IMG/VR virus record: IMGVR_UViG_3300005573_000062
Location: 1 to 64,000 of that record
Origin: a virus
Direction: 5' to 3' (one strand)
Length of the DNA stretch: 64,000 nt
The notes beneath the pieces are model-generated. The model made no database searches. It was not told the DNA's origin and saw nothing but the letters and a program-made list of their open reading frames with translations. Below, piece after piece: positions 9,444 to 27,518 of this stretch (positions are counted from its first letter, which is position 1; each line of letters opens with the position of its first letter). Position numbers and translations under genes: made by a program.

Positions 9444-10139
9444 ATGGACAATAGAATAAATCCAAATAATGCAGATGTATTATACGATGAGAGTGGAGTT
9501 ACAATCGCCAACATTAAAGTGTTTGGTCCTAATACTGTTAATCAGTATGCTGTTCAAAGAGAAACAATGGCCAAAAGATTGGCAGATAAAGAAATAAATA
9601 CAACAACCGAAATTCTTACTAATCTATTTAAAAAAGCAGGATATGATGCAATAAAAGTAAATTATGTAGATCCTAAAATTACTTTGGATGAAAAAGATAA
9701 CATAAGCGGAAATATTAGATATTCATTTTTCGTTACAGATAAAGAAGGAACTAAAAAAGTCAATTTTGACTTAGTCTACAAAGAAGGAAAAGCTGAACTT
9801 CCTGATCTTTCCTCTATAAAAAGTGAAGTTAAAAATATAAAAACAGAAGAGAAAGAAAAAGAAGATCAAATAAAAACTGAGATAGAAAAACAATATGCTC
9901 CAGTAGCGGGCGTACAATTGGATGAAGACGGCGATATTAAGAAAGAAGCATCGGCTGGACCTAATAATGGTTCTTTTCATGCAGATATAATAAACGTCGA
10001 TAAAACTTGGATTCCCTTTCTTAAAAAGGGAGATATTATTGATATCGATGGAATGCCTTATGAGGTTGTCGGTGAAGATTATAACAAAATGTCTCAAAAC
10101 TCGGATGGTTCATTCATAACATTAAAGTTAAAGAGGTAA
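9444..10139 (+). CDS. Hypothetical protein, putative head-associated
   Basis: AGGAG RBS before ATG9444; internal KKEAS linker. Confidence 0.6.
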   Translation: MDNRINPNNADVLYDESGVTIANIKVFGPNTVNQYAVQRETMAKRLADKEINTTTEILTNLFKKAGYDAIKVNYVDPKITLDEKDNISGNIRYSFFVTDKEGTKKVNFDLVYKEGKAELPDLSSIKSEVKNIKTEEKEKEDQIKTEIEKQYAPVAGVQLDEDGDIKKEASAGPNNGSFHADIINVDKTWIPFLKKGDIIDIDGMPYEVVGEDYNKMSQNSDGSFITLKLKR

Positions 10140-10145
10140 CTCAAC

Positions 10146-11534
10146 ATGGCACTGTCTAATTGGATATATGAAATAATAGGTCTTTCTAAAAAATCAGAAA
10201 AGATTTTCAGTAATAAAACTTTTAATATTATAGATCCTTACTCAATCGGTGAAGAACCCCAACAGAGAATTAGATCCGTAACGCTAATAGTTGATTCTGA
10301 TGAAGATGAAAAATTTTATGTTTCTTTGTCATGGAAAGACACATTAAAAGAAATATTTTCAAAGAAATTTGATTCTTCCGAAAAAGCGATAGAAGCATTT
10401 AAAATTTTAAAGGAAGATTTATCCAAATTAGACGATTATATTAAAAATGATGATTTAGATAAAGCTGAAGAAGAGTCTAAAAAATTTTTAGATTACTTAG
10501 TAAATGAAAGTAAAAAGAGTGAACTAGGAGAACTAATTTCAGAAAGTAGCATACCCAATCTAAAAATGGATAATTTTATAATAAAAACATATAATCCTTC
10601 TTTGATTACTCCTATTCTTCCTAAATCTTTTTCAGATAATAGAAATCTTCCAAGTAAAACATTTCACGATAAGAATGGTAACATAGGAATAAATGGATTT
10701 TATTATGATAAATTTTTTGTAGAAAATAAAGTCATTAGTAATCTTGTTTTAATAGAAAAAAATCAAGGATTAAATTCTAATTATTTTGTTATAGCAGATA
10801 AAGATGAAGACAATTTTAATAAAATAGAATTAGAGATAAAAAGAGTGATAACTGACGATACTCCAGATATACAAGTAGAAGAACCAAAAGATAATACTAT
10901 TGCCTTTGGAAGTGGAAGAAGAGGTAAACCTTTAACAGATGAAGAAAGACTAGAAAGACATAAAACAATATTTCCTAATGACGATGTAGAAAGTACAGAA
11001 GACCTACCTCAAAGAGGAACCGGTAAAGGGATTGCTCCGTCTAAAGATGAACCTCGAAAATATTATAAATTTAAAACTGATAACGTGAAACAAGATAGAA
11101 CTCAGAAATTCGGTTCTCAAAATCCCTGGAATGCTAAGATGGAATATGACATGGATGGAACCAAATCATCTGAAAAGGCAATTTCATTTGAAACTCCATT
11201 AATAATAGATAAAGAAAACAATAAATATAATATAACATTTTTCAACGGAAAGAGTGAAAAATTAGATTTAGATACTTTGAAATCATACTTAAAATTATCA
11301 CACTTCGATTCGGAAATAATAGAAAAAATTTTAAAATCAGCTGAAAAAGGAAAAGTAATATTATACGGAAAAAATTTTGATCTGATAAAAGAATTCAATG
11401 TTAAAGTAAAAGCTTTATTAAATAAATATAAATATGAAGATGCTTTAGCCCTTTTAGAAAAAAATTCTTCTATCAGTGAATTCAACGATCTTATTAAGAT
11501 TCTTAAAACTGCGCACAATGAAAATGTATTATGA
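10146..11534 (+). CDS. Multi-domain hypothetical protein, putative head-associated
   Basis: GAGGT RBS; C-terminal DLIKILKTA. Confidence 0.6.
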   Translation: MALSNWIYEIIGLSKKSEKIFSNKTFNIIDPYSIGEEPQQRIRSVTLIVDSDEDEKFYVSLSWKDTLKEIFSKKFDSSEKAIEAFKILKEDLSKLDDYIKNDDLDKAEEESKKFLDYLVNESKKSELGELISESSIPNLKMDNFIIKTYNPSLITPILPKSFSDNRNLPSKTFHDKNGNIGINGFYYDKFFVENKVISNLVLIEKNQGLNSNYFVIADKDEDNFNKIELEIKRVITDDTPDIQVEEPKDNTIAFGSGRRGKPLTDEERLERHKTIFPNDDVESTEDLPQRGTGKGIAPSKDEPRKYYKFKTDNVKQDRTQKFGSQNPWNAKMEYDMDGTKSSEKAISFETPLIIDKENNKYNITFFNGKSEKLDLDTLKSYLKLSHFDSEIIEKILKSAEKGKVILYGKNFDLIKEFNVKVKALLNKYKYEDALALLEKNSSISEFNDLIKILKTAHNENVL

Positions 11535-12226: not shown

Positions 12227-12227
12227 C

Positions 12228-13454
12228 ATGCCGATAATAGAACAGGATTCTAATGGAAATATTATAATTCCAGAATCTCCTTCCTTTTCTCCAGATTCAT
12301 TAGTAATGGATAAAGATGGAAATTTTATAAATCCTGCTAAAGAAGACGGTAATTTACAAATATTGTCCAATCAAGTAGTAACCAAATTGAATTTAACTTT
12401 ATCAGATTTATTAAATGGAATCAAAGGAATAGATAATAAAGATATATCTACTTTAGAGCAAAAAATTATTGATTTACAAACATTTTTAAATGGTAAGTTA
12501 AATTTATCTATACAAGATTTGGCTAATGCCCTAGAACAGATAACAGTTACTATTGATAATATAATAGGGATTAAAGATACTACAGGAATGCAAATCAATC
12601 CTGCTACCTTTGAAAGTATTCAAGGATTAAATACTTTACTTTCAGATATAAAAACTTTAATAAATTCATTAGATACAAAAACTACTATAGTAAATACCAA
12701 TGATGTTAAAGTTACAAGTTCAGTATTACCTACGGGTGCAGCTAAAGAAACGGGAGGAAATCTTGATTTAATTAAATCAAATACAGATAAGATAGATATT
12801 CCTTTATCTACTCGTGCTACTGAAACTACTTTACAAGATGTAGATACTAATGTAATAGCATTAGGCCCAAAGGTTGATGCTATCAAAACTCAATTAGATA
12901 CAAGAGTAAGAGGTCTTTTTGATGCTGATGGTAATTCAATTAATTCTATTGCTATTCCAATAATTGGGTATAGAGGAATTTCAAGTTTAAGTGCCACAAT
13001 AGACCAATATTATGCTTTTAATAAGCAGATGTTTTATTATGGCTATCCTATAAATATTAATGGTAATGACACAAATGTTATGGCATTAATAAATCCTGCG
13101 AATAGCAGAAAAACGATTTTAATAAAAAGAATATATATAGCAAGAAATCAGGATAACAATAATGGTGTTTTCTTTTCTATTAGATCAGGGGCTACGGTAT
13201 CTCCAGGAACACCTGTAACTCCATTATCCACAATAGGTGATGGAACTTCAGCTGCAATTTTATATACCGCTCCTGCGGTAACTGCCACAGGAAATTTAAT
13301 ATTTGTTATGGCATTAAATGCTAATGAAAGCAGTAAGCAAGAAGATTATAATTTAAATTACGGATTAAATACAGGAGAAAATTTACTTATAATAGGTAAC
13401 GCTACTGCTAATGGAACTCCGTGTTTTGTTACTCTTAATTGGGTGGAGGTATAG
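12228..13454 (+). CDS. Putative fibre-like virion protein
   Basis: Repeated (P/A)AKE/ATE knob motifs, coiled coil, beta-rich C-terminus. Confidence 0.5.
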   Translation: MPIIEQDSNGNIIIPESPSFSPDSLVMDKDGNFINPAKEDGNLQILSNQVVTKLNLTLSDLLNGIKGIDNKDISTLEQKIIDLQTFLNGKLNLSIQDLANALEQITVTIDNIIGIKDTTGMQINPATFESIQGLNTLLSDIKTLINSLDTKTTIVNTNDVKVTSSVLPTGAAKETGGNLDLIKSNTDKIDIPLSTRATETTLQDVDTNVIALGPKVDAIKTQLDTRVRGLFDADGNSINSIAIPIIGYRGISSLSATIDQYYAFNKQMFYYGYPININGNDTNVMALINPANSRKTILIKRIYIARNQDNNNGVFFSIRSGATVSPGTPVTPLSTIGDGTSAAILYTAPAVTATGNLIFVMALNANESSKQEDYNLNYGLNTGENLLIIGNATANGTPCFVTLNWVEV

Positions 13455-13455
13455 G

Positions 13456-14094
13456 ATGTTTGATTTAATAACATTAGACTACCCACAATTTATAAACATA
13501 GTTACTAAAAAGAAAGCAAGAATACAATATTTGGAAAAAGAAAATCAATATTGCCTATTTGCGTATGATGGCCCAATTAAATATTACACTTGTATTTATA
13601 AACAAGACCCAAAGATTGATAATTTTGACTGGGTTACAGAGCAGCAAAATCTAAATGATTTTGAAAGTAAATACAAATCTAGTGCCAATAGACCAATTGG
13701 AATTAGCCCTGTGGAAGGTGAGAGCATTTTTAAATCTTTTTTGTTAGAAATTCTAGATAACCAACAGCAAGGAATTATAGAAATAGATATAGCAGAAGTT
13801 TACGGTAAAGATATAGAATTAAGAAGGGTTAGACCAAGACCTATTCAAGCAAAAATGGGAGATAAGGTTCATTTTGAAGTCTGGGCTAAGGAAGGGTATG
13901 GGTTACCTACTGACGTTCCTTTGCGAAAATTTGGAGAGACCTATCTTGAAGGTGGAGATGGTTGGTCTGGCCTCTGGTATGAAGGAGTAGGAACTGCTCA
14001 AATTCCACAAATTTTTATATTAAAATTAATATATGATAAAGGAACAGATTTAACTTATAGGAGATTCTACTTAGATGTTGAGGTAATAATTTAA
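13456..14094 (+). CDS. Hypothetical (virion) protein
   Basis: GGAGGT upstream of ATG13456. Confidence 0.55.
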   Translation: MFDLITLDYPQFINIVTKKKARIQYLEKENQYCLFAYDGPIKYYTCIYKQDPKIDNFDWVTEQQNLNDFESKYKSSANRPIGISPVEGESIFKSFLLEILDNQQQGIIEIDIAEVYGKDIELRRVRPRPIQAKMGDKVHFEVWAKEGYGLPTDVPLRKFGETYLEGGDGWSGLWYEGVGTAQIPQIFILKLIYDKGTDLTYRRFYLDVEVII

Positions 14095-15251
14095 TGCTAG
14101 ATTCATTTTTGAATAAAATAATTAAAACTGCTCAAAAAGAGATATTAGATAAACCTATAAAAGGTTTAATATTAGTATTTGAAGGTTTAGACGGTTCTGG
14201 TAAATCCACGCAAACAGAATTAGTTGCTAAGATTTTTAAAAAAATAGGAAAAGAAGTTATTATATCTAGATGGAACTCTTCTAAAAAAATTTCAGATGTA
14301 GTTAAATTTTTAAAAAATAAAAAAGATCTTAAACCTCAAACCTGGACTCTGTTAGAAGCTGCGGATTTGTATGAAAGATTAAGAAAAGATATTCTACCTG
14401 TTGTCCAGAATGGAGGAGTTGCTATTTTAGATAGATACTATTATACCGCATTAGTTAGAGGATGTATTAGAGGAGCAGATCCTGAATGGATAAATGAAAT
14501 ATATAAATATGTTCCTGAACCCGACTACATTTTTTATTTTAGAATTAATCCTATTATTTCTTTATCTAGAGTATTAAAAAGATCTAAAGAGCTATCAATT
14601 TCTGATATTTTTGACATAAATGAGGTTCTTAAATTCTATGAATCAGGACAAGATCTTTCTTTTCATGAAAATAAATTAGTAAATTTCTATTTTTTTCAGA
14701 AAAAGATGACTGAATTATATGATACAATATTTAAAGAGTATAAAGATAAAGTATGTGTTTTAGATGCATCTAAAGACATATTATCTGTTTACGGCGATAT
14801 TATCAAATTTCTAAGGAATGAAAAAGTATTGACTGGATTTAGAACCTTTAGAGATATGATATATTTCGTTGAACTACCTAAAGGATCATTGAAAGTTTCG
14901 AAAGAGAATGAAGTAATGATGCCTTGTAATTATGGTTTTATTCCTAATACAATCGGTGAAGACTTAATGGAAGTAGATGTCTTAGTAGGTGATAATGAAA
15001 ATAGTGATTTAGTTGTTAAATTATATCATTACAATAAAAAAGATGAATTTTCAGAAGTAAAATATGCAATAGGATTTTCTTCAGTCGAAGAAGTTATTAA
15101 AGCATATACTCAAATTTATCCAAATAGAAAAATGAAATATGGAATAATGAAGTTTGAAGATTTTAAGAAAGAAATTAACAAAGAAGATGATTTTAGATCT
15201 ATAGAAAATCTGTTGAAATCGTATATAGGTGAGGGTACATATGGATTATAA
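14094..15251 (+). CDS. tmk: Thymidylate kinase fused to inorganic pyrophosphatase-like domain
   Basis: FEGLDGSGKST, LDRY (dTMP kinase); ELPKGS...PCNYGFIPNTIGED..EVDV (family I PPase). Confidence 0.85.
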   Translation: MLDSFLNKIIKTAQKEILDKPIKGLILVFEGLDGSGKSTQTELVAKIFKKIGKEVIISRWNSSKKISDVVKFLKNKKDLKPQTWTLLEAADLYERLRKDILPVVQNGGVAILDRYYYTALVRGCIRGADPEWINEIYKYVPEPDYIFYFRINPIISLSRVLKRSKELSISDIFDINEVLKFYESGQDLSFHENKLVNFYFFQKKMTELYDTIFKEYKDKVCVLDASKDILSVYGDIIKFLRNEKVLTGFRTFRDMIYFVELPKGSLKVSKENEVMMPCNYGFIPNTIGEDLMEVDVLVGDNENSDLVVKLYHYNKKDEFSEVKYAIGFSSVEEVIKAYTQIYPNRKMKYGIMKFEDFKKEINKEDDFRSIENLLKSYIGEGTYGL

Positions 15252-15762
15252 AATTAAGCCAGGAGAGATCTATCCTGGAGATATATTATTATTTTCAGGA
15301 AAAGGATTTATTTCAAGAGGTATAAAATTTTTTACAAATTCTGAATACTCCCATGTTGCAATTGCTGTTTCCGGAACAGAATGTATAGAAGCAACTGCTG
15401 CAGGAGTAGAAAAAAGTGATATACAAACATTAATAAATAAAACTGAACACTTTTGTGTAAGAAGAATAGATTTGACAATGGAACAAGCTGAAAAAATAAA
15501 GGAAAGAGCTTATCAACTTTTATATGAAAGTTACGATTTTCTTCAATTTATAAGTATGATTCCTTACCTTTTACTTAGAAAAATAGGAATAACATGGAAT
15601 TCTCTTATATTTAATTCTAGAGTTAGAATGATTTGTTCTGAATTGGTTGGGGTATGTTTAAAATATGCAGATGTTATTAATACTCCTAATTATTATATAA
15701 AAAGATATACTCCTGATTCTTGGTATAAATTTGAGAAGGCTAAAACAATTTTAGAATTATGA
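15241..15762 (+). CDS. Permuted papain-like NlpC/P60 (YiiX-like) hydrolase
   Basis: PGDILL, YSHVAI, IEA, YDF, CSELV, TP. Confidence 0.85.
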   Translation: MDYKIKPGEIYPGDILLFSGKGFISRGIKFFTNSEYSHVAIAVSGTECIEATAAGVEKSDIQTLINKTEHFCVRRIDLTMEQAEKIKERAYQLLYESYDFLQFISMIPYLLLRKIGITWNSLIFNSRVRMICSELVGVCLKYADVINTPNYYIKRYTPDSWYKFEKAKTILEL

Positions 15763-18581
15763 AACTTTTTAAAAACAAAAATCATCCTTTGATTCCTGTT
15801 TTGAATGAGTGGAAAAAATTAAATAAAATGGAATCTAGAACTTTAGATTCTATTGATGAAGAACCTATCTTAAAAACATTCAAAATCGATGGAGAATTAA
15901 CTGCTGTTTATTATAACAATGGAGATGTAGAATTAGTATCGAAGACAGGAACAATTCGAAAAGAACTTCCTTTGTGTGAAGAAATTAAAGATGCTTTAAA
16001 GGAATATAAAGAAGTTATTCTTATTGGAGAATTATATGGGGTGGATGAAAATGGGAAAATGCTTCCTTTTAATGAAACATCTAGTATTTTGAGAACGCCT
16101 ACTTCAGAAGAAGAAAAAAGAATTCGATTGTCTGTGATTCAAATATTATCAGCAGACAAATTGTTTTTTGATTCTGTCATTGAAAGTTACTCTTTAGTTA
16201 AAGAATTATTTAGTGAATATACATATATTCATCCTATGCCTGAAGTAACAAAAGATTTAAATGATATTTGGACAGTTGAGATAGCAACAAAAAATTACGA
16301 AGGATTTGTTTTATATTATCCAGATAAAATAGTAAAAGTTAAACCGAAATTGGAATTTGATTTAGCTGTTATATTTGTTGAGATTAGTGATATACACCCA
16401 GATAGAATGGGGGCTCTAGGACTTGCTTTTATGGATGAAGAAAGAAATTTTAGATATGCTGGAAAAGCGGGAACTGGGTTTTCTAATAAGGATAGATATG
16501 ATTGGTTAGAATATGGAAAAGAAAGAGAAGTAAGAAAAGAGGATAACAAAATTTTTATAAAACCAGATAGAGTTGTAAAAATAGAGGCAATGGATGTTTT
16601 TATTAGAGAAGCTGAAACGTATGATCAGGATTTAAATTATATTGGAGATAAAACATCTGGGATATTAAGACAACCTGTATTTATAGAAATACGAGAGGAT
16701 AAAGAAGCGACCCCTGAAGATATTAGAATAGAACAGATTCCTAATTGGAATAAATTAGTAAAAACCTCATCTTTATCAGTTGTTTCATATATTCAATATA
16801 TTAAAAATCATAAGAATTCAAAAGGAGAACCTGCTCCTTGGGTAATAAAAGAGCATAATACTGGAAGAATACTTTCATCCCATAAAACCAAAGAAGAAGC
16901 TGAAAAGCACTTAAAACAAATATATTATTTCAGACATAAAAAAGCAGGGTATCAAATGGAATTAGATGATTATTTAAAGGAACGTCTTTTTGAAAAATAT
17001 TTAAATGATCATATTAATTCAGTAAAAGATAATGTTAAAAAGATAGTGTTTAAGTATCCTCAATATATAAAAGCATTAGAGAATGTAGAAGAACATGATA
17101 AACTTAAAAATTTAGAGCCTGAAAGAACTCCATATATTGAATTAACATATAAGAAATTGTATGGGATTAAAGATCTATCTGAAGAAGAACAACAGGCTCT
17201 ATTTCATCATATCAAAAATAGTAAGCATCATCCTGAATATTGGGATGATTTAGTACAGAATGTAAGGAATGATCCCGATAATGCAACTCAAGAAGTGAAT
17301 GTTTCTAAAATGCCAGATGAATATCTCTTGGAAATGGTTGCAGATTGGAAAGCTACTGCTGATGTACTAGGAAATACCGCTAGATCCTGGTTTGAAAAAC
17401 AAAACGGAAAAAGATGGATTTTTACTTCACATCAAATTGATTTAATTAACAAATTTATAGATGTTCTAGAACCTCAAGAATCTAATGAGGAAAGAAATCT
17501 TATACAATCAGTAGAAGAAGAGATAAAAGCAGTTAAGTTATACACAGATTTCCGGGATAAAACAAATGATGAAAAAGTAAAAGATGTTTATAATCATGTA
17601 ATTGATGAAGAAATGGAGCATGCAGAAGAATTTTTAGATGCACTAAAGAATACCAGAGAAGCACTTTTCATGAATGCATATTTTCCTAGTCATCCGGATA
17701 AAATAGTCATACCTGAGGCTAAAAAAACAGAAAAAGACATATGGAACTATTACGATTCTATAAAAGAAAAGATGCTTAATTATCTTAAAGGGTATGATAT
17801 TGTACTTAGAATCATAACTGATTCTGGGCCTATAATTGTACGGCATGACCCCAAAACAGGTGAGAATATTAAAATAAATACTATTGAAGATTTTGACAGA
17901 TGGAATAATGGTAGAGTTATCGAATTTCATAGAGCTATTCCTTCATCTAAAACAGATCTCTTATGGATAGATTTTGATCCTCATGAAGAATACGATAAAA
18001 AAGATATTTTTAAAATTATGTCTGAGATTGAAGAACAAGTTAAAGATAATTTCGATGTTAATAAAATAGAAACTTTTTCTACTGGGGGTAGAGGATACCA
18101 TATGTTTATATACTTAAAATCCGAAATTGATGTAGATGAAGCTAGAAAAGAATTAAAAAGACTTTTAGATGAAATTTCAGAAAATCATGAAAAAATAACT
18201 ACTGGAATAGCAAATAAGGATGAAATGAGATTAGATATTTCAACTTTGCACTATGGCGGTAGTTTAAGATCTCCTTTTTCTCTTAATATAACATCTGGGA
18301 TTCCTGAAAAACCGATCAATATAACTATTAGTCATTTGCTATCTTTTATTAAAACTGGGGATCAAGATGAAATCATTAAAACTGAATATGGGATTCTACG
18401 CGAATTGTCAGATGAAGGATTAATAAATAACGATATTTTAGGTAAATTATTGGAAAAAACAGATTTTGGTAAAAGGATGAGGGAAGAAACAGAAAGAAAA
18501 ATTAATAATGAAATTTCTAAAGAAGAGTATAAAAACAATATAATAAAGTTAGTCGAAGAACTTCTAGCTGCTTTAATATAA
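15759..18581 (+). CDS. Polyprotein: ATP-dependent DNA ligase + small domain + DUF5662/HD-like + ferritin-like + LigD-type AEP primase-polymerase
   Basis: KIDGE, GELY, EGFV, KVK, GKAGTGF, LRQPVF..REDK; HD..K...HH..N.HHPEYW...EMVADW; EEEIKAV.LY...EEMEH; HPDK...YY, IDFDP, TGGRGYH, SPFSL. Confidence 0.85.
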   Translation: MKLFKNKNHPLIPVLNEWKKLNKMESRTLDSIDEEPILKTFKIDGELTAVYYNNGDVELVSKTGTIRKELPLCEEIKDALKEYKEVILIGELYGVDENGKMLPFNETSSILRTPTSEEEKRIRLSVIQILSADKLFFDSVIESYSLVKELFSEYTYIHPMPEVTKDLNDIWTVEIATKNYEGFVLYYPDKIVKVKPKLEFDLAVIFVEISDIHPDRMGALGLAFMDEERNFRYAGKAGTGFSNKDRYDWLEYGKEREVRKEDNKIFIKPDRVVKIEAMDVFIREAETYDQDLNYIGDKTSGILRQPVFIEIREDKEATPEDIRIEQIPNWNKLVKTSSLSVVSYIQYIKNHKNSKGEPAPWVIKEHNTGRILSSHKTKEEAEKHLKQIYYFRHKKAGYQMELDDYLKERLFEKYLNDHINSVKDNVKKIVFKYPQYIKALENVEEHDKLKNLEPERTPYIELTYKKLYGIKDLSEEEQQALFHHIKNSKHHPEYWDDLVQNVRNDPDNATQEVNVSKMPDEYLLEMVADWKATADVLGNTARSWFEKQNGKRWIFTSHQIDLINKFIDVLEPQESNEERNLIQSVEEEIKAVKLYTDFRDKTNDEKVKDVYNHVIDEEMEHAEEFLDALKNTREALFMNAYFPSHPDKIVIPEAKKTEKDIWNYYDSIKEKMLNYLKGYDIVLRIITDSGPIIVRHDPKTGENIKINTIEDFDRWNNGRVIEFHRAIPSSKTDLLWIDFDPHEEYDKKDIFKIMSEIEEQVKDNFDVNKIETFSTGGRGYHMFIYLKSEIDVDEARKELKRLLDEISENHEKITTGIANKDEMRLDISTLHYGGSLRSPFSLNITSGIPEKPINITISHLLSFIKTGDQDEIIKTEYGILRELSDEGLINNDILGKLLEKTDFGKRMREETERKINNEISKEEYKNNIIKLVEELLAALI

Positions 18582-18600: not shown

Positions 18601-20625
18601 ATGAATTCGTTTAAAATTGCTGCGGAGACCGGTCCTTACTGGATTAGCCCAAAAGGGAAAGTATATAAAGTGGATGAGCCTACTCATGAAGTGTGGGCTA
18701 ATATTAATTTCGATAAATCACCACATGAATTATTGAAAGAAGGCTGGGTAAGAATTCAACTTAATCCTTCTGGAATTTCTGGTATTGCTATTCAGGTGGA
18801 TTCACTTAATAATCTATCTGAGTCTGTTGACGATTTCGTTTATCAAAATCGAGGATATTATATAATAGTCGACGCAGGAAATAAAAATTATAATATAAAT
18901 TACGATGAATTTTTAGATTCTGGCAAAAGTTTAAGATCTTATATTGAATCTAAAAGTCCAATCGGTCCAACTTCAAGATTAAGAGGTGGTATCATGAATG
19001 ATTTTATTAAAGAATTAATAAAAGAAGCTGATTTTTATAAAGAAAAACAGGAACAAAAACCTATCAAATTCAAAGTAACTCCTTCTGAAAAAGGTAAAGA
19101 TTCTGAAACAAAAGAAGAAGCAACTTTTATGGATGTTAAAAATATTCAACAGGTTTCTGAAGAACTTAGAAAGTTAATATCTGATGTCGTATCTTTACAA
19201 AAAGTTGAATCTGAACTCAAGGAAAAACAAAGAAAATTTGAAGAAGCACAAAAAATAGTTCATGATAAATTGCATGAATTTTTAAAAAAATCATATATAT
19301 CTGTAATAGCTTTAGTAGGTAAAACTCCTAAAGATGTAATCGAATTTAAAAAAGAACTAGGAGACGTGCTCGATAAAAAGACGTTTGAGCGATACAGAAT
19401 AGAGCAGGAAGAAATAGAAAAAACTTTGCTTAATATAACTCAATTGAGTGCTAAAGTAGAAGAAGAATTTAATAAAAGAATACTCAATTTATATGATAAA
19501 TTAGAAAAAAATACAATGTATTTAGATAATGTTTTAAGAGCGATGGTTCGTGATGCTTCCGAAATGACATACGTAATAGGAGCAATGAAAGAGGTCGGAA
19601 AACCAGAAAGATACGCGATATATAAATCTTCTGTTGAAAAATCTCTTGAGAAAATTAGTCAAGAATTTAAAAACGGAAAAGAAATAGTAGAAAGTATTAG
19701 AAAATATATAAATGAATTTTTAAAAGATGTTGTTAATTCAGATGAGCATTTCCAAAAAGTTGTTAAAATTTTCGAAAGTGGAAGACTTGCAGACTATCTA
19801 TATGTTGATCTAGATGAGGAAATTAAACAAAAACTTTTAGGAGAGGATAAATTACAGTCGATGATTGAATTAAAATTCAAAGAAAAGTATCCTAATAGTG
19901 ATATAAAATCTGAAGTTGAAAAAAGAATACAAACAATTAAGAAAGATAATAAAGATATATCAGATGATGATGCTAGAAAAATGGTATTTAAAGAATTGTT
20001 TAATGAATTAGGTGGGCATACATATCCATCAGTGTACGAAGAAAAAGGGAAAGAATTACTTCAAACCCAATATAGAGAACAAGCTAGGGAACTCTTAAAG
20101 AATATTTTGCTTTCAAAAAATCCAGAATTAGCAAAGGATGAAACGAAATTAAATGAAGAAATCGATAAATATCTTAGTCAATATTTTAAAGGTTCGGAAG
20201 ATATCGAGAAGATTCTTAAAGAAGTTCAAAAAATTCCTTTACCTCATTTAGAAAAAGAATTAAAAAAATCGTTCTTAGAAAAGATTATAATAAATAAAGA
20301 TTACAAAAAGATTGATTTGATTTCTAAACTTTTAGAATCTAATTATGATTTAAATACAGCAATCCAGGTTATAGCTACTATTTCTGATATATCTATACCT
20401 GAAGTAGAAGCACTATCAAGTGCTCTCGATGCGTTGAATACTACAGCTGAATTGATCATCTCAGAAAGTAATAAATTGCAAGAATCGATTGCTAATATAA
20501 AAGAAGCAGGTAAAGAAATAGAAGAAGTTCTTTCTAAAAAAGTAGAAACAGAAGTAGAACCGACTTTTCAACCTGAGTTTGCTCTTGCTCCTGCTTCGTT
20601 AAAAAGCAAGATTGATATAAAATAA
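18601..20625 (+). CDS. Large helical protein, putative internal head protein
   Basis: GPYWISPKG..H...GWVRI N-domain then coiled coils; internal RBS+ATG at 18994. Confidence 0.6.
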   Translation: MNSFKIAAETGPYWISPKGKVYKVDEPTHEVWANINFDKSPHELLKEGWVRIQLNPSGISGIAIQVDSLNNLSESVDDFVYQNRGYYIIVDAGNKNYNINYDEFLDSGKSLRSYIESKSPIGPTSRLRGGIMNDFIKELIKEADFYKEKQEQKPIKFKVTPSEKGKDSETKEEATFMDVKNIQQVSEELRKLISDVVSLQKVESELKEKQRKFEEAQKIVHDKLHEFLKKSYISVIALVGKTPKDVIEFKKELGDVLDKKTFERYRIEQEEIEKTLLNITQLSAKVEEEFNKRILNLYDKLEKNTMYLDNVLRAMVRDASEMTYVIGAMKEVGKPERYAIYKSSVEKSLEKISQEFKNGKEIVESIRKYINEFLKDVVNSDEHFQKVVKIFESGRLADYLYVDLDEEIKQKLLGEDKLQSMIELKFKEKYPNSDIKSEVEKRIQTIKKDNKDISDDDARKMVFKELFNELGGHTYPSVYEEKGKELLQTQYREQARELLKNILLSKNPELAKDETKLNEEIDKYLSQYFKGSEDIEKILKEVQKIPLPHLEKELKKSFLEKIIINKDYKKIDLISKLLESNYDLNTAIQVIATISDISIPEVEALSSALDALNTTAELIISESNKLQESIANIKEAGKEIEEVLSKKVETEVEPTFQPEFALAPASLKSKIDIK

Positions 20626-22446: not shown

Positions 22447-23962
22447 AAATAAAGAAGGAATAAAAAAGGTCGGTGAACTATGGAATTCAGACTTAAATAA
22501 ACGAGTAATAACAAAACAGGCGTCGGCCGCTGGATCTGTTACTCTTACGAGCGCTCAATTTTATACTCCAGAATTAACTCCTGAAACCTGGCTATTACCA
22601 AAAAGTAGACAAGAAGTTTTAAGATGGGCTAGAATATATTTCAATCTTGAACCTTATATTCAGTCTATTATAATGTTTCATAGCAGATATCCTTTTTCTA
22701 AATTTAAGTTAATTGGAGAAGATAAAGGAATTGTAGAATTTTTCAACGAAGTCGTTGATAATGAAAGATGGAATCTATATGAATTTATCTTACAGGCTAG
22801 TTTATCATATCATCTTTACGGTGAAGCAATTCCAATGGGAGAATGGGATGAAAAAGATAAAAAGTGGAAAAAATTTATATTGTTAGAACCTGAATTAGTC
22901 GAGGTTAAACAAGGATTATTTGACGATGAAACTAAATTTGAACTTATTCTAACAGATGAAATTAAAAAACAAATAAACGATCCAAATGTAGATACTAGTA
23001 AAATTCCCGAAGCCGTAGTTGAAGCAATTAAATCAAATAAGAATATCAGATTAGATAACAAAAATGTTTCAATAATTGCTAGACTTACAAGTCCATCTGC
23101 TCTTAGGGGTACTCCAATTATACAATGTTTATTTAAAGTTTTAATTTATCAAGATTATATTCGTTTAGCTCAAATGAGAATAGCAGAACGACACCAACTT
23201 CCTTTTGAATTATGGACACTTGGCAACATAGATAAAAATATTCTTCCGTCAGATGAAGATCTTGAGAATTTTAAAAATATGATTAATTCAGCTATTCAAA
23301 ATCCTCCTTTTTCAATGGTTTATCCTCCAATAGTAGATTATAAAGTTCTCGGAGTAAAAGATAAATTATTGAATATATATGAAGATCTAGGATATGTTGA
23401 AAATCAGATTTTGGTTGGTTTAGGAGTCAATAAAAATTTGATACTAGGTGAAGGTCCTTCCTTTTCAAATACAAAAACAATATCTTTAAATAAATTGATG
23501 ATGGAATATCAAATTATAAGAGATACCTTCGAGAGATGGATTTACAATCATGTCTTTAGACGTATAAGTGAAGAAAATGATTTTTTTATACATAAGGGAA
23601 AGTTTAAAAAACTTATTCTTCCTAAAATCGAATGGGAAAAGAGTCTTAGATTGGATGAGGATGATGAAAGAAAAGTATATCAAGAACTTCATTCAAAAGG
23701 ATTTGTTTCCACTAAAACTCTGTTCAGCAAGTTTAGTAATTTAGATTATGATATGGAACGCAGACAACTCGAGGAGGAAAAAGGAACAATTTACGATAAA
23801 ACAGATGGGAAAAGAATTCCTGAAAAATTTGATCAATCTAAAGAAGAAGTTAGATCAGATAAGACTGTGGGGTTGGAGACCCCCCCTCTTCCGACCCCAC
23901 CTACTATGACAGAAGAGGTAAAACCTGAACTTCCTCTTCCTGAGATAAAAATAGGAGAATAG
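22433..23962 (+). CDS. Portal protein
   Basis: Follows terL; YHLYGEAIP, RGTPII, GLGV...LILGEGPSFS; 509 aa. Confidence 0.85.
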   Translation: MTMNENKEGIKKVGELWNSDLNKRVITKQASAAGSVTLTSAQFYTPELTPETWLLPKSRQEVLRWARIYFNLEPYIQSIIMFHSRYPFSKFKLIGEDKGIVEFFNEVVDNERWNLYEFILQASLSYHLYGEAIPMGEWDEKDKKWKKFILLEPELVEVKQGLFDDETKFELILTDEIKKQINDPNVDTSKIPEAVVEAIKSNKNIRLDNKNVSIIARLTSPSALRGTPIIQCLFKVLIYQDYIRLAQMRIAERHQLPFELWTLGNIDKNILPSDEDLENFKNMINSAIQNPPFSMVYPPIVDYKVLGVKDKLLNIYEDLGYVENQILVGLGVNKNLILGEGPSFSNTKTISLNKLMMEYQIIRDTFERWIYNHVFRRISEENDFFIHKGKFKKLILPKIEWEKSLRLDEDDERKVYQELHSKGFVSTKTLFSKFSNLDYDMERRQLEEEKGTIYDKTDGKRIPEKFDQSKEEVRSDKTVGLETPPLPTPPTMTEEVKPELPLPEIKIGE

Positions 23963-23965
23963 AAT

Positions 23966-24235: not shown

Positions 24236-24310
24236 ATTTTGAAACGTTAAAATCTAGAGTTCAGCAGGGCGCCTTCCAGTCCGTTAATGAACCTGTAAAA
24301 GAGACGATTT

Positions 24311-24532
24311 ATGGAAAACGAGAATCAGGTTCAGGACATCGAAATATTAAAAGAAGAAGACAATATAAAAAAAGTAGTTTCTAATGCTTTACAAAAATTC
24401 ATGGGTAAAGCATTGGATTTAGCTAGAATTAGCGAAATGAGTGATCGAAGTTTCAATCAATTTCAAAAATCATTAAAGGATGAGTGCTATAATTTAATAG
24501 ATCAAATTACTGTTTTGATCTCTAAAAAATAA
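24311..24532 (+). CDS. Hypothetical protein
   Basis: 73-aa ORF in head operon. Confidence 0.6.
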   Translation: MENENQVQDIEILKEEDNIKKVVSNALQKFMGKALDLARISEMSDRSFNQFQKSLKDECYNLIDQITVLISKK

Positions 24533-24534
24533 TT

Positions 24535-24867
24535 ATGAGATTCGAGGATACCTGGCATAAAAAGATAAGTAAAATTGCAGGACATGCTCAAGATGAATCA
24601 TTAGAAATATTGCAGGATTTGTTAGATTCTGGATACGACAGAGTGCAATTAAAAACAAGTCCTAATGCTTGTTCTGTCTGCCTAAAGCACCAAGATGAAA
24701 TCAAAGATCTTGAAGAATACTTATCAAAGTTGAATTACGACGCTCCTATAGCTGAATGGACTCATCCAGATGATAAAAGTTGTTATCTTTTAGTTTATAA
24801 AGATATGCCAGATGAAGATCACCCAGAAGTAGCAGTTTATTATGATGGGAGTTATCAAGAATTATGA
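24535..24867 (+). CDS. MuF-like head morphogenesis domain protein
   Basis: ACSVC...HPDDKSC resembles MuF C..C...HPxCRC. Confidence 0.5.
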   Translation: MRFEDTWHKKISKIAGHAQDESLEILQDLLDSGYDRVQLKTSPNACSVCLKHQDEIKDLEEYLSKLNYDAPIAEWTHPDDKSCYLLVYKDMPDEDHPEVAVYYDGSYQEL

Positions 24868-27518
24868 TTTACAAGATTGGAAGTATAGGAAACATCATTT
24901 CGGTAGTTAAAAAGAATGTTACTCCATCTGTTAAACCTTCAGTTACCCCTAAAGTAACTCAGAATGTTACAGAGATTCCAGAAGGACGAGCAGGATTCTC
25001 CGGAACCCCTGTTCAGGTAGAGCCGCTGGATAAAGAGAATTTTTTATATTTTTGGGCTAGAGCAATTTCAGCAGGAGAAACATCAGGTCCAAATGGAAAT
25101 GGAGATTATTTTCCATTGGCCGAATTAATTAAATCGTATAAAACGTTTATTGGAAGAGGATTGTTTTTAAATCACGATTCCAAAGACGTCGAGAAATCTG
25201 TAGGAAAAGTTATAGATTCTCAAATAGTAGTAGATCCGGAAACCAAAGAAGTTTGGATTGAGTGTCTTTGTAAAGTTGATAAAAAACTTTATCCAGACAT
25301 TTGTAGAAAGATAGAAACAGGGGTCATTGATTCTGTTTCTATGGGGTGTTCGTGTGGTTCAGCCGTTTGCTCTATTTGCAATAAAGAAGCACATGCAGTT
25401 GAAGAATTTTGTGACCATCTTAGATATGGATTATTGACAAAATTTAATGTTGACGGGAAAGAATCTCTGTGCTATTCAATCAATAAAGATATTAATTTTG
25501 TTGAATTATCCCTAGTCGCTACACCGGCTGATTCAAAAGCTAAAATAAGAGATTTGATAGCTAAACTTAAACTAAATCGAATCTCAAATTCAAAAAGTGA
25601 GGTAAATATGGAAATACAGAGTGGAAAAACAGAAGATAAAGAAATAAAGATCAAAACGACTAAAGAAGAACAGGATTCTTCAAAAGATCCTTCTTTAGAA
25701 AAAATGCAGGATAATCTTGAAAAAGTTAAAACAACTAAAGATGAACAAGATGAATTAAAAAAAGTTCTTATGAAATTAAATGCATCTGAATATCTTAGTT
25801 TACTTAATTTCATCGAGAAGAAATCTGAAAAAGATTTATCTAATATCGAACGACATAAATCTTCAGAATATGAACAATTTCAAAAAGTAAACGATGAAAT
25901 TGAATCAGAAACGAAGAAAACAAAAGTAGATCCTGAATTAAAAGATTTAAAGGAATCTATTGTGTCTAGAAAAGCAGGCCAGATCGATGATCCTAAAGAC
26001 AAAGAGATGAAAGATATTGAAGAAAAGGATTTAAAAGAGATAAAAAAGAAGATTATCGAAAGATTGACTGAAAAATTAGCTAAGTTGAATAAAGAGGCTG
26101 AAGCTAAAGAAGGTGGAAAAGAATATTATTATTTTACAGGATCAAAAGAACCCAAACCTGCTTTTCCATCAGAACAAAAGGTTCAGTATAGCAGCCCGTC
26201 AGCTGGCAAAGATCCAACTCAGGTTGAAGAAGGGAAAACAACTAAAGATCTCGAGGAACAATATAAAGAAGAACAGAAGAAACCAGCAGACGAATGGAGT
26301 AAAGCTCAGGAAAGTGTTAAAAAGGAAGTCGAATCTGAAAATACTATTGAAAAATCTAAAAAGATAATAGGATTTGCTTCTGATAATGATGTTAAAATAT
26401 TTAGGGTTGCTAATAAAGCTGGGCAAGAGAATCTTTTAATATTTAAAAATGATGTTCTAGTAGGAGAAATTCCATTAAATGCTAAAGAGATGACAGATGA
26501 GGCTTCTAAGTTTATATCTGATAAAATTAAAAAATTAAGGGAAGAAGGAAAACCAGAGGATCAGGCTATAGCTATAGCTTACAGCATGGCTAGAGAAAAA
26601 GGATATGATGTTCCGGAGAAAAAAGCTGAATTGAATACTCAAGCTATTAAATCGGTTGTTGATGAGAAAAAAGAAGAAAAGTCTGAAAAAGCTCCAAAGG
26701 ATGAAAAAAAATCTGAAAAAGAGGAATCTAAAAAGGATACAAAGCCTTCAAAAGAAGAGAAGAAAGAACCTCTTAAATTAGATGAATTACTTAAAGAGAC
26801 TCCTAAAATGGATGAACTCAAAGAAACTCCTAAGACTGAAGAGAAAAAAGAAGAACCTAAATTAGACGAACTAATGAAAGAAGCCCCTAAGTCTGAAGAG
26901 AAAAAAGAGGAGCCAATGAAAGAAGCTCCTAAATTAGAAGAAAAAAAGGAAGAGCTTAAGGAAGAAGAAAAAGAAACAGGCACAGAAAAAGTGATAAAAA
27001 AGATGCATGATTTGTGGGAGAAGTTTAATATCAAAACAAAAATTGAACCCAGAAAATCTGCACAGCCTGTTTATGATTATATTTTAAATCTCTTGGAAAT
27101 ATTTGAAAGAGAAATAAGTCCTTCAAAAGAAGAAGGTGCTAAAGAAAAAGAAAAGAAGATAGAGGCTGAATTGGCGTTAGAAAGAACAAAATCAGCCCTT
27201 AGAGAAAAGTTGATATATGCGAGAAACCTCGTAGAGGAAATGTTGCAGAAAGGAATGATAGCTGTTGACGAATCTGCAATGAAACATGCACAAGCAGAAG
27301 GGAAAACAGTGATGGAATCTAAAAAAATAGGTATAGAAGCTTCTGTTAACAAACAGGTAGCGGATTTACTTAAAATGGATGACAAATCTCTGAAAGCTTT
27401 TGCAGATTCAGTTGGAAGGATTAATGTCACAGCTTCAAAGAAAGTTCTAAGTAATCCAATTAATGTTCCAGTCGATTCGAATGATGAAGATTGGATTGAA
27501 AAATTAGATTGGAAATAA
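24864..27518 (+). CDS. Prohead maturation protease fused to scaffold
   Basis: NGDYFP..EL, LFLNH, GKVIDS, SVSMGC..CSIC..CDH, ELSLVATPAD; then a long K/E-rich coiled region. Confidence 0.85.
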   Translation: MIYKIGSIGNIISVVKKNVTPSVKPSVTPKVTQNVTEIPEGRAGFSGTPVQVEPLDKENFLYFWARAISAGETSGPNGNGDYFPLAELIKSYKTFIGRGLFLNHDSKDVEKSVGKVIDSQIVVDPETKEVWIECLCKVDKKLYPDICRKIETGVIDSVSMGCSCGSAVCSICNKEAHAVEEFCDHLRYGLLTKFNVDGKESLCYSINKDINFVELSLVATPADSKAKIRDLIAKLKLNRISNSKSEVNMEIQSGKTEDKEIKIKTTKEEQDSSKDPSLEKMQDNLEKVKTTKDEQDELKKVLMKLNASEYLSLLNFIEKKSEKDLSNIERHKSSEYEQFQKVNDEIESETKKTKVDPELKDLKESIVSRKAGQIDDPKDKEMKDIEEKDLKEIKKKIIERLTEKLAKLNKEAEAKEGGKEYYYFTGSKEPKPAFPSEQKVQYSSPSAGKDPTQVEEGKTTKDLEEQYKEEQKKPADEWSKAQESVKKEVESENTIEKSKKIIGFASDNDVKIFRVANKAGQENLLIFKNDVLVGEIPLNAKEMTDEASKFISDKIKKLREEGKPEDQAIAIAYSMAREKGYDVPEKKAELNTQAIKSVVDEKKEEKSEKAPKDEKKSEKEESKKDTKPSKEEKKEPLKLDELLKETPKMDELKETPKTEEKKEEPKLDELMKEAPKSEEKKEEPMKEAPKLEEKKEELKEEEKETGTEKVIKKMHDLWEKFNIKTKIEPRKSAQPVYDYILNLLEIFEREISPSKEEGAKEKEKKIEAELALERTKSALREKLIYARNLVEEMLQKGMIAVDESAMKHAQAEGKTVMESKKIGIEASVNKQVADLLKMDDKSLKAFADSVGRINVTASKKVLSNPINVPVDSNDEDWIEKLDWK
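26750..26965 (+). repeat. Tandem coding repeat EEKKEEP(K)LDELMKE(A/T)PK in the scaffold
   Basis: 3-4 imperfect copies. Confidence 0.8.

Follow-up and report, generated by a model that had tools for sequence, protein, structure and literature searches.

Do the Lys-x-Ala strings scattered through the head genes of this phage mark places where a head protease cuts? The window is a 64,000-nucleotide stretch of viral DNA (positions 1 to 64,000 of IMG/VR record IMGVR_UViG_3300005573_000062), part of a 126-kb phage genome. A sequence-only reading of its left part had listed 15 peptide strings at leaders and domain junctions, and had proposed that the protease encoded at 24864 cuts after [KR]-x-A to release head cargo, so that the leaders could act as capsid-loading tags. 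All 15 strings are present in the genes to which they were assigned, and six of them align with a conserved K-x-A (or V-x-A) in relatives: those in the portal, the MuF-like protein, the 9444 protein, the scaffold (NVTAS), the island at 18994 and the kinase leader. This part of the proposal is supported by comparison; the support does not extend to the sites in the 940-aa protein, to scaffold SRKAG, NKEAE and EKKAE, or to the site near the end of the 10146 protein, and the motif as first written is not enriched in the window. Judging from sequence comparisons, we give a probability of about 60% to the reading that a head protease of this phage family recognizes and cuts a hydrophobic-x-Lys-x-Ala motif, which survives at a handful of sites in the window. 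A few of the K-x-A strings are probably cut sites because relatives keep the same signal at the same places; the remaining ones would be ordinary occurrences in a Lys-rich proteome. Literature searches found no published description of such a code in head genes.

Motif frequencies in the window and in related phages

Expected counts come from shuffling the residues within each of the 17 proteins encoded between 7.9 and 27.5 kb (6,493 aa) 200 times. The enrichment of [KR]-x-[AS] that had been suggested as a check, and whose absence had been named as counting against the proposal, does not occur in this region (94 observed versus 101.7 expected, z -0.8; 87 versus 104.4 in the tail proteins), K-x-A is not enriched either (31 versus 29.5), and [KR]-x-A stands at 46 versus 37.4 (z 1.5). 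An unbiased scan of all a-x-b pairs places K-x-A at rank 147 of 298 in the head module of the window (32 versus 31.9). [ILMV]-x-K-x-A is weakly elevated there (13 versus 8.0, z 1.8, rank 17 of 263) and matches expectation in the rest of the 126-kb genome (29 versus 29.2). The pattern [ILMV]-x-[KRV]-x-A-[SGTA] is found 11 times in head genes versus 3.4 expected, a number reached by none of 400 shuffles, and 11 times versus 11.2 elsewhere in the genome; it was shaped partly by the same sites that it scores, and the sharper motifs were chosen post hoc. N-terminal sites, with the Ala at or before residue 32, occur in 4 of 18 head genes and 5 of 156 others (Fisher one-sided p 0.007).

The related phages display a much stronger signal. 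Across about 25 related loci and the cultured Bacillus phage G, hydrophobic-x-K-x-A tops the patterns of its kind (z 4.5–8.2). In the distant relatives [ILMV]-x-K-x-A ranks first of 219–263 hydrophobic-x-a-x-b patterns, with 37 sites versus 9.8 expected in L088 (z 8.2), 30 versus 8.0 in L100 (z 7.6), 26 versus 8.6 in L107 (z 5.6) and 18 versus 6.3 in L102 (z 4.5), and plain K-x-A ranks 1–5 of about 300 a-x-b pairs in nine of the ten loci tested; these counts are not independent, because the relatives are akin to one another. The closer clade, L103, has little signal (K-x-A 13 versus 13.6; the sharper motif 7 versus 3.7). The enrichment in relatives and phage G is restricted to head genes. In G001, a complete 192-kb relative, the head locus has 29 sites versus 10.4 (z 5.9), and six of the seven other 20-kb stretches have z values from -2.0 to 1.2, the excess in the seventh coming from a single 933-aa protein with 11 sites. 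Phage G proteins gp8–gp27 carry 17 sites versus 4.5 expected (reached by none of 1000 shuffles). The protease gp19 has seven of them, placed on either side of its core and 22 aa short of the C-terminal end.

The protease and the probable family signal

25017..25565, + strand: protease domain (approximately residues 52–234 of the 884-aa protease-scaffold fusion, gene 24864–27518), the presumed enzyme reading the motif

The 24864 gene was correctly taken to encode a head protease, and its fold is that of T4 gp21 and the herpesvirus assemblins. The domain matches phrog_18299 ('head maturation protease', E 9.2e-20) and phrog_2774 (E 1.7e-34), with no sequence match in Pfam or PDB. Its AF2 model is confident at about residues 60–230 (pLDDT >90), and the segments on both sides of the core are modelled as disordered (pLDDT <50, residues 1–50 and 234–259). 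The best structural match is T4 gp21 (5jbl_A, Z 11.1, rmsd 2.9 Å, 129 aa), followed by the assemblins (Z 8–10 overall; 10.1 for those of VZV and PrV), and His104 and Ser159 are invariant in eight sequences. The phage family would mature its head with its own serine protease, in this phage the N-terminal domain of the fusion.

In relatives the motif lies directly downstream of the protease domain (16 of 17) and in the N-terminal leaders of capsid proteins, and single polyproteins carry it many times, at domain joints and directly before enzyme domains, as in L107, where it is 5 aa upstream of an LMW phosphatase domain. Its places (after the protease domain, at the scaffold C-terminus, at the portal N-terminus and in capsid leaders) are those expected of a head protease. 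Ser and Ala are favored after the motif Ala and Gln is unusual, and Val replaces the Lys in some portals and capsid leaders of relatives as well. The probable family signal is a hydrophobic residue at P5, Lys or Val at P3 and Ala at P1, followed by Ser, Gly, Thr or Ala. We infer that this motif is cut and that the proteins lose their leaders; by analogy with herpesvirus assemblins, the cut would probably follow the Ala. Mature N-termini for proteins of these phages were not found in the literature (main texts only for the phage G and Arash papers); those two papers report particle proteomes, and their main texts contain no cleavage mapping.

Candidate sites in the window

22508..22522, + strand: portal I-T-K-Q-A then Ser, residues 26–30, just upstream of the conserved core (portal segment comparison)
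24565..24579, + strand: I-S-K-I-A then Gly, residues 11–15 of the 110-aa protein at 24535, called MuF-like in the sequence-only reading (alignment)
9936..9950, + strand: I-K-K-E-A then Ser, residues 165–169 of the 231-aa protein at 9444 (homologue alignment)
27420..27434, + strand: I-N-V-T-A then Ser, 27 aa from the scaffold C-terminus (alignment with distant scaffolds)
18994..19029, + strand: M-N-D-F-I-K-E-L-I-K-E-A, residues 132–143 of the 674-aa ORF at 18601 (orthologue alignment)
18601..18621, + strand: M-N-S-F-K-I-A, first seven residues of the same ORF, a weak candidate leader
10146..10196, + strand: 17-residue N-terminal leader of the 462-aa protein at 10146, ending L-S-K-K-S, absent from the earlier list (alignment)
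11499..11513, + strand: I-L-K-T-A, 6 aa from the C-terminus of the 10146 protein (homologue alignment)
14094..14132, + strand: 13-residue N-terminal extension of a thymidylate kinase-InPase fusion, ending I-I-K-T-A then Gln (alignment and AF2)
15759..18581, + strand: 940-aa ligase / DUF5662 / EncFtn-like / primase-polymerase protein (Pfam domains)

Portals have [ILMV]-x-K-x-A no more than 32 aa from the conserved core motif in 20 of 24 distinct N-terminal segments, often in tandem a few residues apart and amid unalignable sequence; the phage G portal has M-A-K-Q-A|A at residues 16–20. A cut in the window portal would remove about 30 aa, and one in the MuF-like protein 15 aa; the latter site is L-N-K-E-A|A-G-N in all 11 distant homologues and identical in L001 (13 of 13 rows). 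In the 9444 protein the signal appears to be kept at the joint directly upstream of a conserved 62-aa C-terminal domain, and the column is [ILV]-x-K-x-A in all eight homologues, some with an unalignable N-terminal flank. The window capsid protein begins where the M-N-D-I-N-K-E-A|S leader of its relatives ends. The capsid I-D-K-I-A|Q, like the kinase leader, has Gln after the Ala and lies in a conserved helix that runs on uninterrupted, which is atypical of a cut site.

The scaffold column of I-N-V-T-A|S reads N-T-K-K-A|S, V-K-K-V-A|S or I-R-K-E-A|S in 11 of 12 distant protease-scaffolds, and one more has R-x-A. From this alignment it is a candidate 'M-site'-like cut that would free the scaffold from its conserved C-terminal tail. 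SRKAG, NKEAE and EKKAE, kept in an 83% relative only, were not borne out as cut sites. The most diagnostic site of the family, just after the protease domain, is missing from the window, where the sequence is I-S-N-S-K|S, as is the N-terminal site of the protease known from the family.

The 18994 island lies at the joint where the N-terminal domain (130 aa) of the 18601 protein meets its long coiled-coil part, and here the signal is presumably kept. F135–A143 is invariant in all four orthologues, down to 41% identity, and at the same joint as LIKEA|D three distant polyproteins have L-K-K-E-A, S-K-Q-A|D-F or L-Q-K-E-A. M-N-S-F-K-I-A is missing from the three orthologues of this ORF, one of which begins right after the putative cut; the sequences aligned with it in two distant polyproteins, K-K-H-A|S and M-K-Q-A|G, immediately precede the same domain. 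F-[IL]-x-x-[IL]-I-K-[TE]-A, which had been said to recur at several sites, fits exactly two, one at the N-terminus of the kinase and the other at residue 132 in the 18601 ORF.

The ATG at 18994 may also be an internal start; a Shine-Dalgarno-like run is found 5–7 nt upstream of it in both the window and L004, whose encoded residues differ there.

Two short leaders, on the 10146 protein and on the kinase-InPase fusion, probably represent the signal as well. Distant homologues of the 10146 protein have M-N-F-F-R-D-V-V-S-H-L-L-K-N-A|F at the aligned place, and 8 of the 10 rows show K-x-A; the sequence is L-S-K-K-A in L004, Ser replaces the Ala in the window, and L107 lacks the site. I-L-K-T-A at the other end of the protein, also listed as a site, is kept only in an 81% relative (L004 has I-L-K-A-A, and 11 distant homologues have L-K-E-L or similar), and its alignment suggests that it probably belongs to a conserved C-terminal helix rather than being a cut site shared across the family. 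In 10 of the 11 distant homologues a family site, K-K-S-S-x-N-K-E-A|T, lies about 20 aa further upstream; the same alignment finds none in the window protein.

Four sites in the 940-aa protein had been placed at domain boundaries, which holds for two of them and fails for the other two. Residues 342–396 form a module that is a separate ORF in two relatives. In the 83%-identical L004 orthologue the four places read L-E-I-E-S, H-K-K-G-N, T-R-E-A-L and F-D-K-T-G, changed or not K-x-A, and the protein has neither an N-terminal leader nor an [ILMV]-x-K-x-A site.

Rival readings and known systems

With Lys at 9% and Ala at 4%, and amphipathic helices of the hydrophobic-x-x-hydrophobic-hydrophobic-K-x-A type being common, a list drawn up by eye might consist of chance strings without a common function. 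The absence of [KR]-x-[AS] and K-x-A enrichment in the window fits this, as do the nine of 15 listed strings that lack support from distant relatives and the behavior of a longer helix-type pattern (hydrophobic-x-x-hydrophobic-hydrophobic-K-x-A), found 14 times genome-wide versus 4.2 in shuffles but versus 7.0 once hydrophobic context is conditioned. We consider chance unlikely nonetheless, as six listed sites fall on columns that keep the motif in homologues of 40–50% identity with unalignable flanks, within the one genome the head genes stand apart from the other genes, and relatives and phage G have a strong, gene-specific enrichment. A real motif could instead dock proteins to the scaffold, portal or capsid interior, the proteins being uncut or cut elsewhere, and several instances are indeed in predicted or likely helices (the kinase leader, capsid I-D-K-I-A and the 10146 C-terminus). 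This seems improbable; cutting is the more typical explanation because the motif occupies segments modelled as disordered on both sides of the protease core, is often in tandem in portals, recurs at the domain joints of single polyproteins, and is followed exactly by the starts of leaderless proteins. The involvement of another enzyme, a host protease or the papain-like C92 peptidase at 15229, is very improbable. The Peptidase_C92 gene (E 1.5e-7) is next to those of the kinase and the 940-aa protein and is kept beside the kinase in five related loci, and peptidase domains that process polyvalent proteins are discussed in PMC5512222. Against this, the motif flanks the gp21/assemblin-fold protease and marks the scaffold junction in 16 of 17 relatives and phage G, the distant head loci L084–L108 have no BLAST match to the window C92 protein, and Ala at P1 followed by Ser or Thr is the assemblin rule as given in PMC4498786.

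The kinase leader warrants separate consideration. All 11 phage orthologues (58–82% identical) have the extension, which conforms to L-x-x-[FI]-I-[KR]-x-[A/S/T]-Q, the last motif position being Ala in nine, Ser in one and Thr in one. It suits a structural helix as well as a tag, because one confident helix (AF2 residues 2–18, pLDDT about 84) crosses the putative cut. For this leader alone, the chance is only a little short of even that it is an oligomerization, lid or other structural or regulatory helix of an enzyme that works in the infected cell, unpackaged and uncut, with K-T-A incidental. The residues after the Ala (Q-Q/K-E-I/L) are conserved as much as those before it, the Ala itself is replaced in two orthologues, and the Gln that follows is unusual for the family motif. 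Other features point to a packaged protein: all three cellular kinases aligned lack the extension, the gene lies amid structural genes in two different gene orders, the InPase domain matches PHROGs 'minor head protein' and 'virion structural protein' and belongs to a clade (PF18823) predicted to be packaged in PMC5512222, and the leader is like those of the 10146 family and distant proteases.

The proposed cutting by the family protease has parallels in herpesvirus assemblin (pseudorabies pUL26, for example), with which it shares the fold, the N-terminal fusion of protease to scaffold, a site that immediately follows the protease domain in relatives and in phage G (R-like), a second site 22–37 aa from the scaffold C-terminus with a conserved tail and, at the candidate phage cuts, Ala before and Ser/Thr after. 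The pseudorabies enzyme has the release site YLQA-T and the maturational site VQA-S, and the maturational cut removes 37 C-terminal residues that bind capsid protein (PMC4498786). Unlike assemblin, the phage family prefers Lys (sometimes Val) at two and a hydrophobic residue at four positions ahead of the Ala, its motif is found as well in the portal, in small head proteins and in enzyme polyproteins, and the window itself has lost the R-like site. Common to the T4 gp21 system are a single short motif in portal, scaffold, protease and extra head proteins, and short N-terminal leaders that terminate in it. However, the enzymes of T4 ((Leu/Ile)-x-Glu) and of the giant phages phiKZ and SPN3US (A-x-E) cut after Glu, whereas here the presumed residue is Ala and the key residue Lys, and the window protease matches no Pfam protease family. 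Propeptides of 20–254 residues are removed by SPN3US gp245, whose cleavage sites end in A-X-E, have Val at P4 and are followed by Ser (PMC10052503).

That the leaders load proteins into the capsid is suggested by analogy only, with T4 and P1, for which leader targeting is established. The first 30 residues of P1 DarB suffice for loading a reporter into capsids (PMC9024508), and DarB and T4 IPIII resemble the window proteins in that a short N-terminal peptide precedes a large or enzymatic protein whose gene is grouped with head genes, but the window kinase leader may, from its model, be a structural helix. The polyvalent proteins described by Iyer et al. 2017 (PMC5512222) are likewise multi-enzyme proteins encoded amid virion genes. 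The 940-aa protein has this architecture without the motif, and the polyvalent-type proteins of relatives have 2H phosphoesterase and LMW phosphatase domains. Processing by internal peptidase domains is proposed in PMC5512222, whereas here the joints carry the motif of a separate head protease.

The head gene block and its protease

The source record is 126,098 bp long, and the window, its first 64 kb, has a G+C content of 27–38%. [quoted passage not shown] The features are listed here, with genes named by their start positions in the window.

14094, thymidylate kinase fused to an InPase domain (PF02223, E 1.4e-25; PF18823, E 1.2e-12)
15229–15762, C92 papain-like peptidase, an enzyme gene upstream of the head block
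940-aa protein with DNA ligase, DUF5662, EncFtn-like and LigD primase-polymerase domains
20675, terminase (phrog_2, E 2.1e-24)
22433, portal (phrog_16240, E 2.4e-47)
24864, protease-scaffold fusion of 884 aa (phrog_18299 'head maturation protease', E 9.2e-20, residues 73–226)
27539, cement protein, between the protease-scaffold and capsid genes
28053, major capsid protein (phrog_2522, E 7.5e-24)

The kinase-InPase fusion and the 940-aa protein each combine several unrelated enzyme domains and are both encoded upstream of the terminase, as expected of polyvalent proteins; the products of 7884, 9444, 10146 and 18601, also 5' of the head block, have no family match. Among the matches listed in searches of 50,697 phage records, Bacillus phage G is the nearest cultured relative (27% identity in the capsid protein, 31% in the portal and 36% in the protease), with actinobacteriophages next; Salmonella phage Arash and Vibrio phage D69 are not among these matches.

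The sequence-only reading had placed a protease at 24864, and both the phrog_18299 match and the gp21/assemblin fold of the model bear this out. Searches of eight members against Pfam (families S77, S78 and S21 were sought) gave no match at E up to 1, and a PDB sequence search with the protease gave none either; the protease was placed by fold search only. An AF2 model of residues 1–259, built from eight sequences, has a core (residues 60–230) with pLDDT above 90 and floppy segments at 1–50 and 234–259. Its best match in VIA-align is T4 gp21 (Z 11.1, rmsd 2.9 Å over 129 aa), with herpesvirus assemblins at Z 7–10 and unrelated MCE-domain rows at Z 6–7; the ten top Foldseek matches are all assemblins or gp21, yet with E about 0.04. 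The modelled protease domain has the gp21/assemblin fold (MEROPS clan SH). His104 and Ser159 are invariant in eight sequences of 41–50% identity and are candidate catalytic residues. The protease-scaffold gene of one related locus (L086:7219–12162) is interrupted by an intein (Intein_splicing, E 2.4e-8; LAGLIDADG_3, E 3.2e-15), inserted directly behind the conserved Ser-Met-Gly-Cys motif with the invariant Ser and so in the presumed active site.

Motif frequency in the window, its relatives and phage G

The idea under study is that a recurring K-x-A motif forms a capsid-targeting and cleavage code read by this protease. All 15 strings quoted in its support were located where they had been placed, but the enrichment proposed as its test does not hold in the window, though the strings are real. 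The pattern [KR]-x-[AS] occurs 94 times against 101.7 expected, with a similar result for the tail proteins, and K-x-A occurs 31 times in the same window proteins against 29.5 expected, ranking 147th of 298 among all a-x-b pairs in the head block. A sharper form, [ILMV]-x-K-x-A, fares somewhat better in the head block (13 observed, 8.0 expected, z 1.8, rank 17 of 263) and is at expectation in the remainder of the genome (29 and 29.2). Two contrasts drawn post hoc are suggestive: the motif has an N-terminal copy in 4 of 18 head genes versus 5 of 156 others (p 0.007), and a relaxed motif, which admits Lys, Arg or Val and takes a small residue behind the Ala, occurs 11 times against 3.4 expected in head genes versus 11 against 11.2 elsewhere. 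A longer leader pattern (hydrophobic-x-x-hydrophobic-hydrophobic-K-x-A) occurs 14 times genome-wide against 4.2 in shuffled sequences, but against 7.0 once the hydrophobic context is kept, and it ranks tenth among residue pairs; it is unconvincing on its own and was set aside.

The relatives give a different picture. The kinase fusion has ten phage orthologues, whose alignment yielded six related loci (L004–L009) in a metagenome scan, and a scan of viral contigs with the portal alignment yielded 26 further loci (L084–L109) with portals 46–53% identical, some of them from complete genomes of 118–193 kb. The motif is unmistakable in the more distant of these relatives. In each of four divergent loci [ILMV]-x-K-x-A ranks first among 219–263 comparable patterns, with 37, 30, 26 and 18 copies observed against 9.8, 8.0, 8.6 and 6.3 expected, and plain K-x-A ranks between first and fifth of about 300 a-x-b pairs in nine of ten loci. 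Across 404 non-redundant K-x-A sites, Ile, Leu, Met or Val is favoured four residues before the Ala, and Ser or Ala directly after it.

This excess is not a genome-wide bias, as seen from comparison of the head locus of a complete 192-kb relative (G001; 29 copies, 10.4 expected) with its other 20-kb stretches, six of seven of which show nothing (z -2.0 to 1.2). The excess in the seventh is owed to a single 933-aa protein (L114:13392–16193, at 53.4–56.2 kb of that genome), which lacks a Pfam match and whose gene lies about 17 kb 5' of the head module; it contains 11 copies, of which the first stops at residue 19. It is likely a polyprotein processed by the protease.

Phage G follows the same pattern, with 17 copies in gp8–gp27 against 4.5 expected, a number reached in none of 1000 shuffles. 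Its gp19 has copies on both sides of the protease core, two of them in tandem just ahead of it, and two near the C-terminus, at a distance of 22 aa in one case; its portal (gp14) has the motif at residues 16–20, in gp20 the motif closes a 12-residue leader, and gp11 contains sites as well. Because phage G is cultured, the rule is directly testable; LC-MS/MS data on its particles are published (PMC12484599, which cites an earlier cryo-EM/proteomics study).

Positions of the candidate cleavage sites

The positions of the motif in relatives are as follows. The protease-scaffold junction, directly 3' of the protease domain, reads [LIMV]-x-K-x-A↓S in 16 of 17 relatives (the arrow marks the presumed cut) and I-L-E-K-V-A↓S in phage G, and further copies lie in the protease's own N-terminal segment and 30–40 aa from the C-terminal end of the scaffold. 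In portals the motif lies in the variable N-terminal segment of 20 of 24 distinct sequences, often twice in succession; in the capsid protein it closes a leader of about ten residues; in large proteins encoded upstream of the terminase it closes a 15-residue leader and recurs about 25 aa from the C-terminus; and in polyproteins with 2H phosphoesterase or LMW phosphatase domains it is found at the joints. Two cases of presence and absence are telling: the capsid protein of the window starts at the point where the relatives' leader stops, and one orthologue of the 18601 protein starts where the window's seven-residue M-N-S-F-K-I-A stops. Val takes the place of Lys at some homologous positions, which supports counting the scaffold string NVTAS as a site, as the sequence-only reading had done.

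The window sites with support from the alignments are these.

Portal, I-T-K-Q-A↓S, a conserved column in relatives
MuF-like protein (110 aa, 24535), I-S-K-I-A↓G, 13 of 13 rows
9444 protein, I-K-K-E-A↓S, 8 of 8 rows
Scaffold, I-N-V-T-A↓S, 27 aa from the C-terminus, with K-x-A at the aligned position of 11 of 12 distant rows
18994, L-I-K-E-A↓D, invariant in 4 of 4 orthologues and sharing its domain joint with the sites of three distant polyproteins
Kinase leader, in all 11 phage orthologues but lacking in three cellular kinases
10146 protein, a 17-residue leader missed by the sequence-only reading, ending K-K-S (window), K-K-A (L004) or K-N-A (distant homologues)

Six of the sites first proposed thus lie on conserved columns, and the others did not carry over. 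The four in the 940-aa protein were dropped after alignment to its L004 orthologue; the scaffold strings SRKAG, NKEAE and EKKAE are kept only in a relative of 83% identity and are unalignable further out; and the C-terminal K-T-A of the 10146 protein was rejected as a family cut site, the distant homologues having theirs about 20 aa upstream, a site that the window lacks. The practical lesson for the window is narrower than for the family: only about six to eight of its sites deserve belief, and the 940-aa repair protein is not marked. A minority of the proposed sites are probably cut by the phage's own protease, of the assemblin/gp21 fold.

Some sites retained in the family have been lost from the window. 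Its protease-scaffold junction reads I-S-N-S-K↓S, and the N-terminal family site of the protease and the C-terminal site of the 10146 family are missing as well; these losses account in part for the weak statistics of the window.

Several other features of these proteins are of note. Within the ORF at 18601–20625, a Shine-Dalgarno-like purine run (18980–18996) is positioned 5–7 nt 5' of an in-frame ATG (Met132); the L004 orthologue has the same arrangement despite different encoded residues, and Met132 is invariant in four orthologues. A nested product of 543 aa may exist, opening with the conserved island of 12 residues. The 940-aa protein is a mosaic whose modules can be swapped: a small basic module (16782–16946, residues 342–396) is an ORF of its own in two related loci (L007, 5929–6180; L005, 20042–20473), and in the L004 orthologue it is directly followed by an additional insert of about 167 aa. 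A segment of 43 residues in the 10146 protein (10902–11030, residues 253–295) is 70% identical to residues 450–492 of L005:2699–5002, in the scaffold part of a protease-scaffold fusion, a likeness suggesting that internal head proteins and scaffolds have exchanged modules. In the window scaffold, the Lys/Glu-rich middle (26760–26960, residues ~633–700) has four repeats ending in [LM]-K-E-[AT]-P-K, in which a motif-like K-E-A/T is followed by Pro.

Leaders, putative cargo and comparison with known maturation systems

To our knowledge, the cut motifs of head proteases have been established for few phages only. Those discussed in the literature consulted end in Glu. In Salmonella phage SPN3US, gp245 is described as cutting after an A-X-E preceded by Val and followed by Ser, and as trimming N-terminal propeptides of 20–254 residues from eight head proteins as well as a C-terminal one of its own (PMC10052503). 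Herpesvirus assemblin is described as fused to its scaffold and as cutting at two sites: the release site follows the protease domain, and at the maturational site the C-terminal 37 residues holding the capsid protein are removed; the pseudorabies virus sites are given as YLQA-T and VQA-S, respectively (PMC4498786). The layout of the present family and its rule of Ala followed by Ser or Thr are closer to the herpesvirus than to the T4 pattern, whereas the need for Lys and the occurrence in many head proteins fit the habit of T4 and the giant phages. The candidate counterpart of the maturational site is the scaffold I-N-V-T-A↓S, which is K-x-A↓S in relatives; the release site is without a counterpart in the window, unlike in 16 of 17 relatives and phage G. 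No description of a Lys-x-Ala head-protease motif was found in the open-access literature searched. The main texts of the particle-proteome papers on phages G and Arash contain no cleavage mapping, and that on Salmonella phage Arash has no occurrence of 'protease' or 'cleav'. As far as this literature extends, the Lys-x-Ala↓Ser rule is not yet described in print.

Phages T4 and P1 are reported to load proteins into capsids by short N-terminal peptides (PMC9024508). Short N-terminal peptides ending in the motif are present here in the kinase-InPase fusion (residues 1–13), the 10146 protein (1–17) and the MuF-like protein (1–15), and they resemble the targeting sequences of T4 IPIII and P1 DarB in being short, N-terminal and motif-ended, in this case in an uncultured phage known from sequence. 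Capsid targeting by these leaders would be by analogy only, and the loading tag is unproven. For the kinase, the leader could be a tag cut at the motif or an ordinary part of the folded protein. The leaders are amphipathic and the kinase gene lies amid structural genes in two different gene orders, both of which favor a tag; the InPase clade was predicted to be packaged by Iyer et al. 2017 (PMC5512222), and the InPase domain of the kinase has further matches to PHROGs whose annotation is head or virion protein. Against a tag, AF2 models residues 2–18 as one helix (pLDDT ~84) that spans the supposed cut, with no floppy leader, Gln always follows the Ala, and conservation is as high downstream of it as upstream. 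With this context on one side and the helix, the constant Gln and the conserved downstream residues on the other, we put a motif-cut tag on the kinase at roughly even odds.

A wider reading, to which we assign a probability of 0.3, is that a large, mostly uncultured group of 120–500-kb phages, together with phage G, has a head protease obeying the herpesvirus rule (after Ala, before Ser, Thr or Gly) with an added Lys determinant, and that the same signal, closing N-terminal leaders of 7–17 residues and marking domain joints, first loads enzyme cargo and later frees it, the cargo entering the host along with the DNA; here it would be the dTMP kinase-pyrophosphatase. If true, Lys-x-Ala↓Ser would be a new specificity for a gp21/assemblin-fold enzyme, and Ala↓Ser specificity an old trait common to phage and herpesvirus assemblins, linking their maturation at the level of substrates besides that of fold. 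It would also provide a sequence rule for predicting injected phage proteins, and mature ends, propeptides and likely packaged or injected proteins would be predictable from sequence in a widespread uncultured phage group.

The surroundings of the kinase gene show some further features. Beside the kinase fusion, both in the window and in five related loci, lies the Peptidase_C92 gene, of the permuted papain-like type; the PHROG label of its family, enoyl-CoA hydratase-like, looks like a misnomer. The ORF at 13411–14094 probably starts at an internal Met (~13456), where three orthologues begin, and the residues 5' of it are poorly conserved. Identity to the L008 proteins is 86% for the 12228 product and 91% for the 13411 product but only 63% for the neighboring kinase, which suggests either strong constraint on both genes or their recent exchange.
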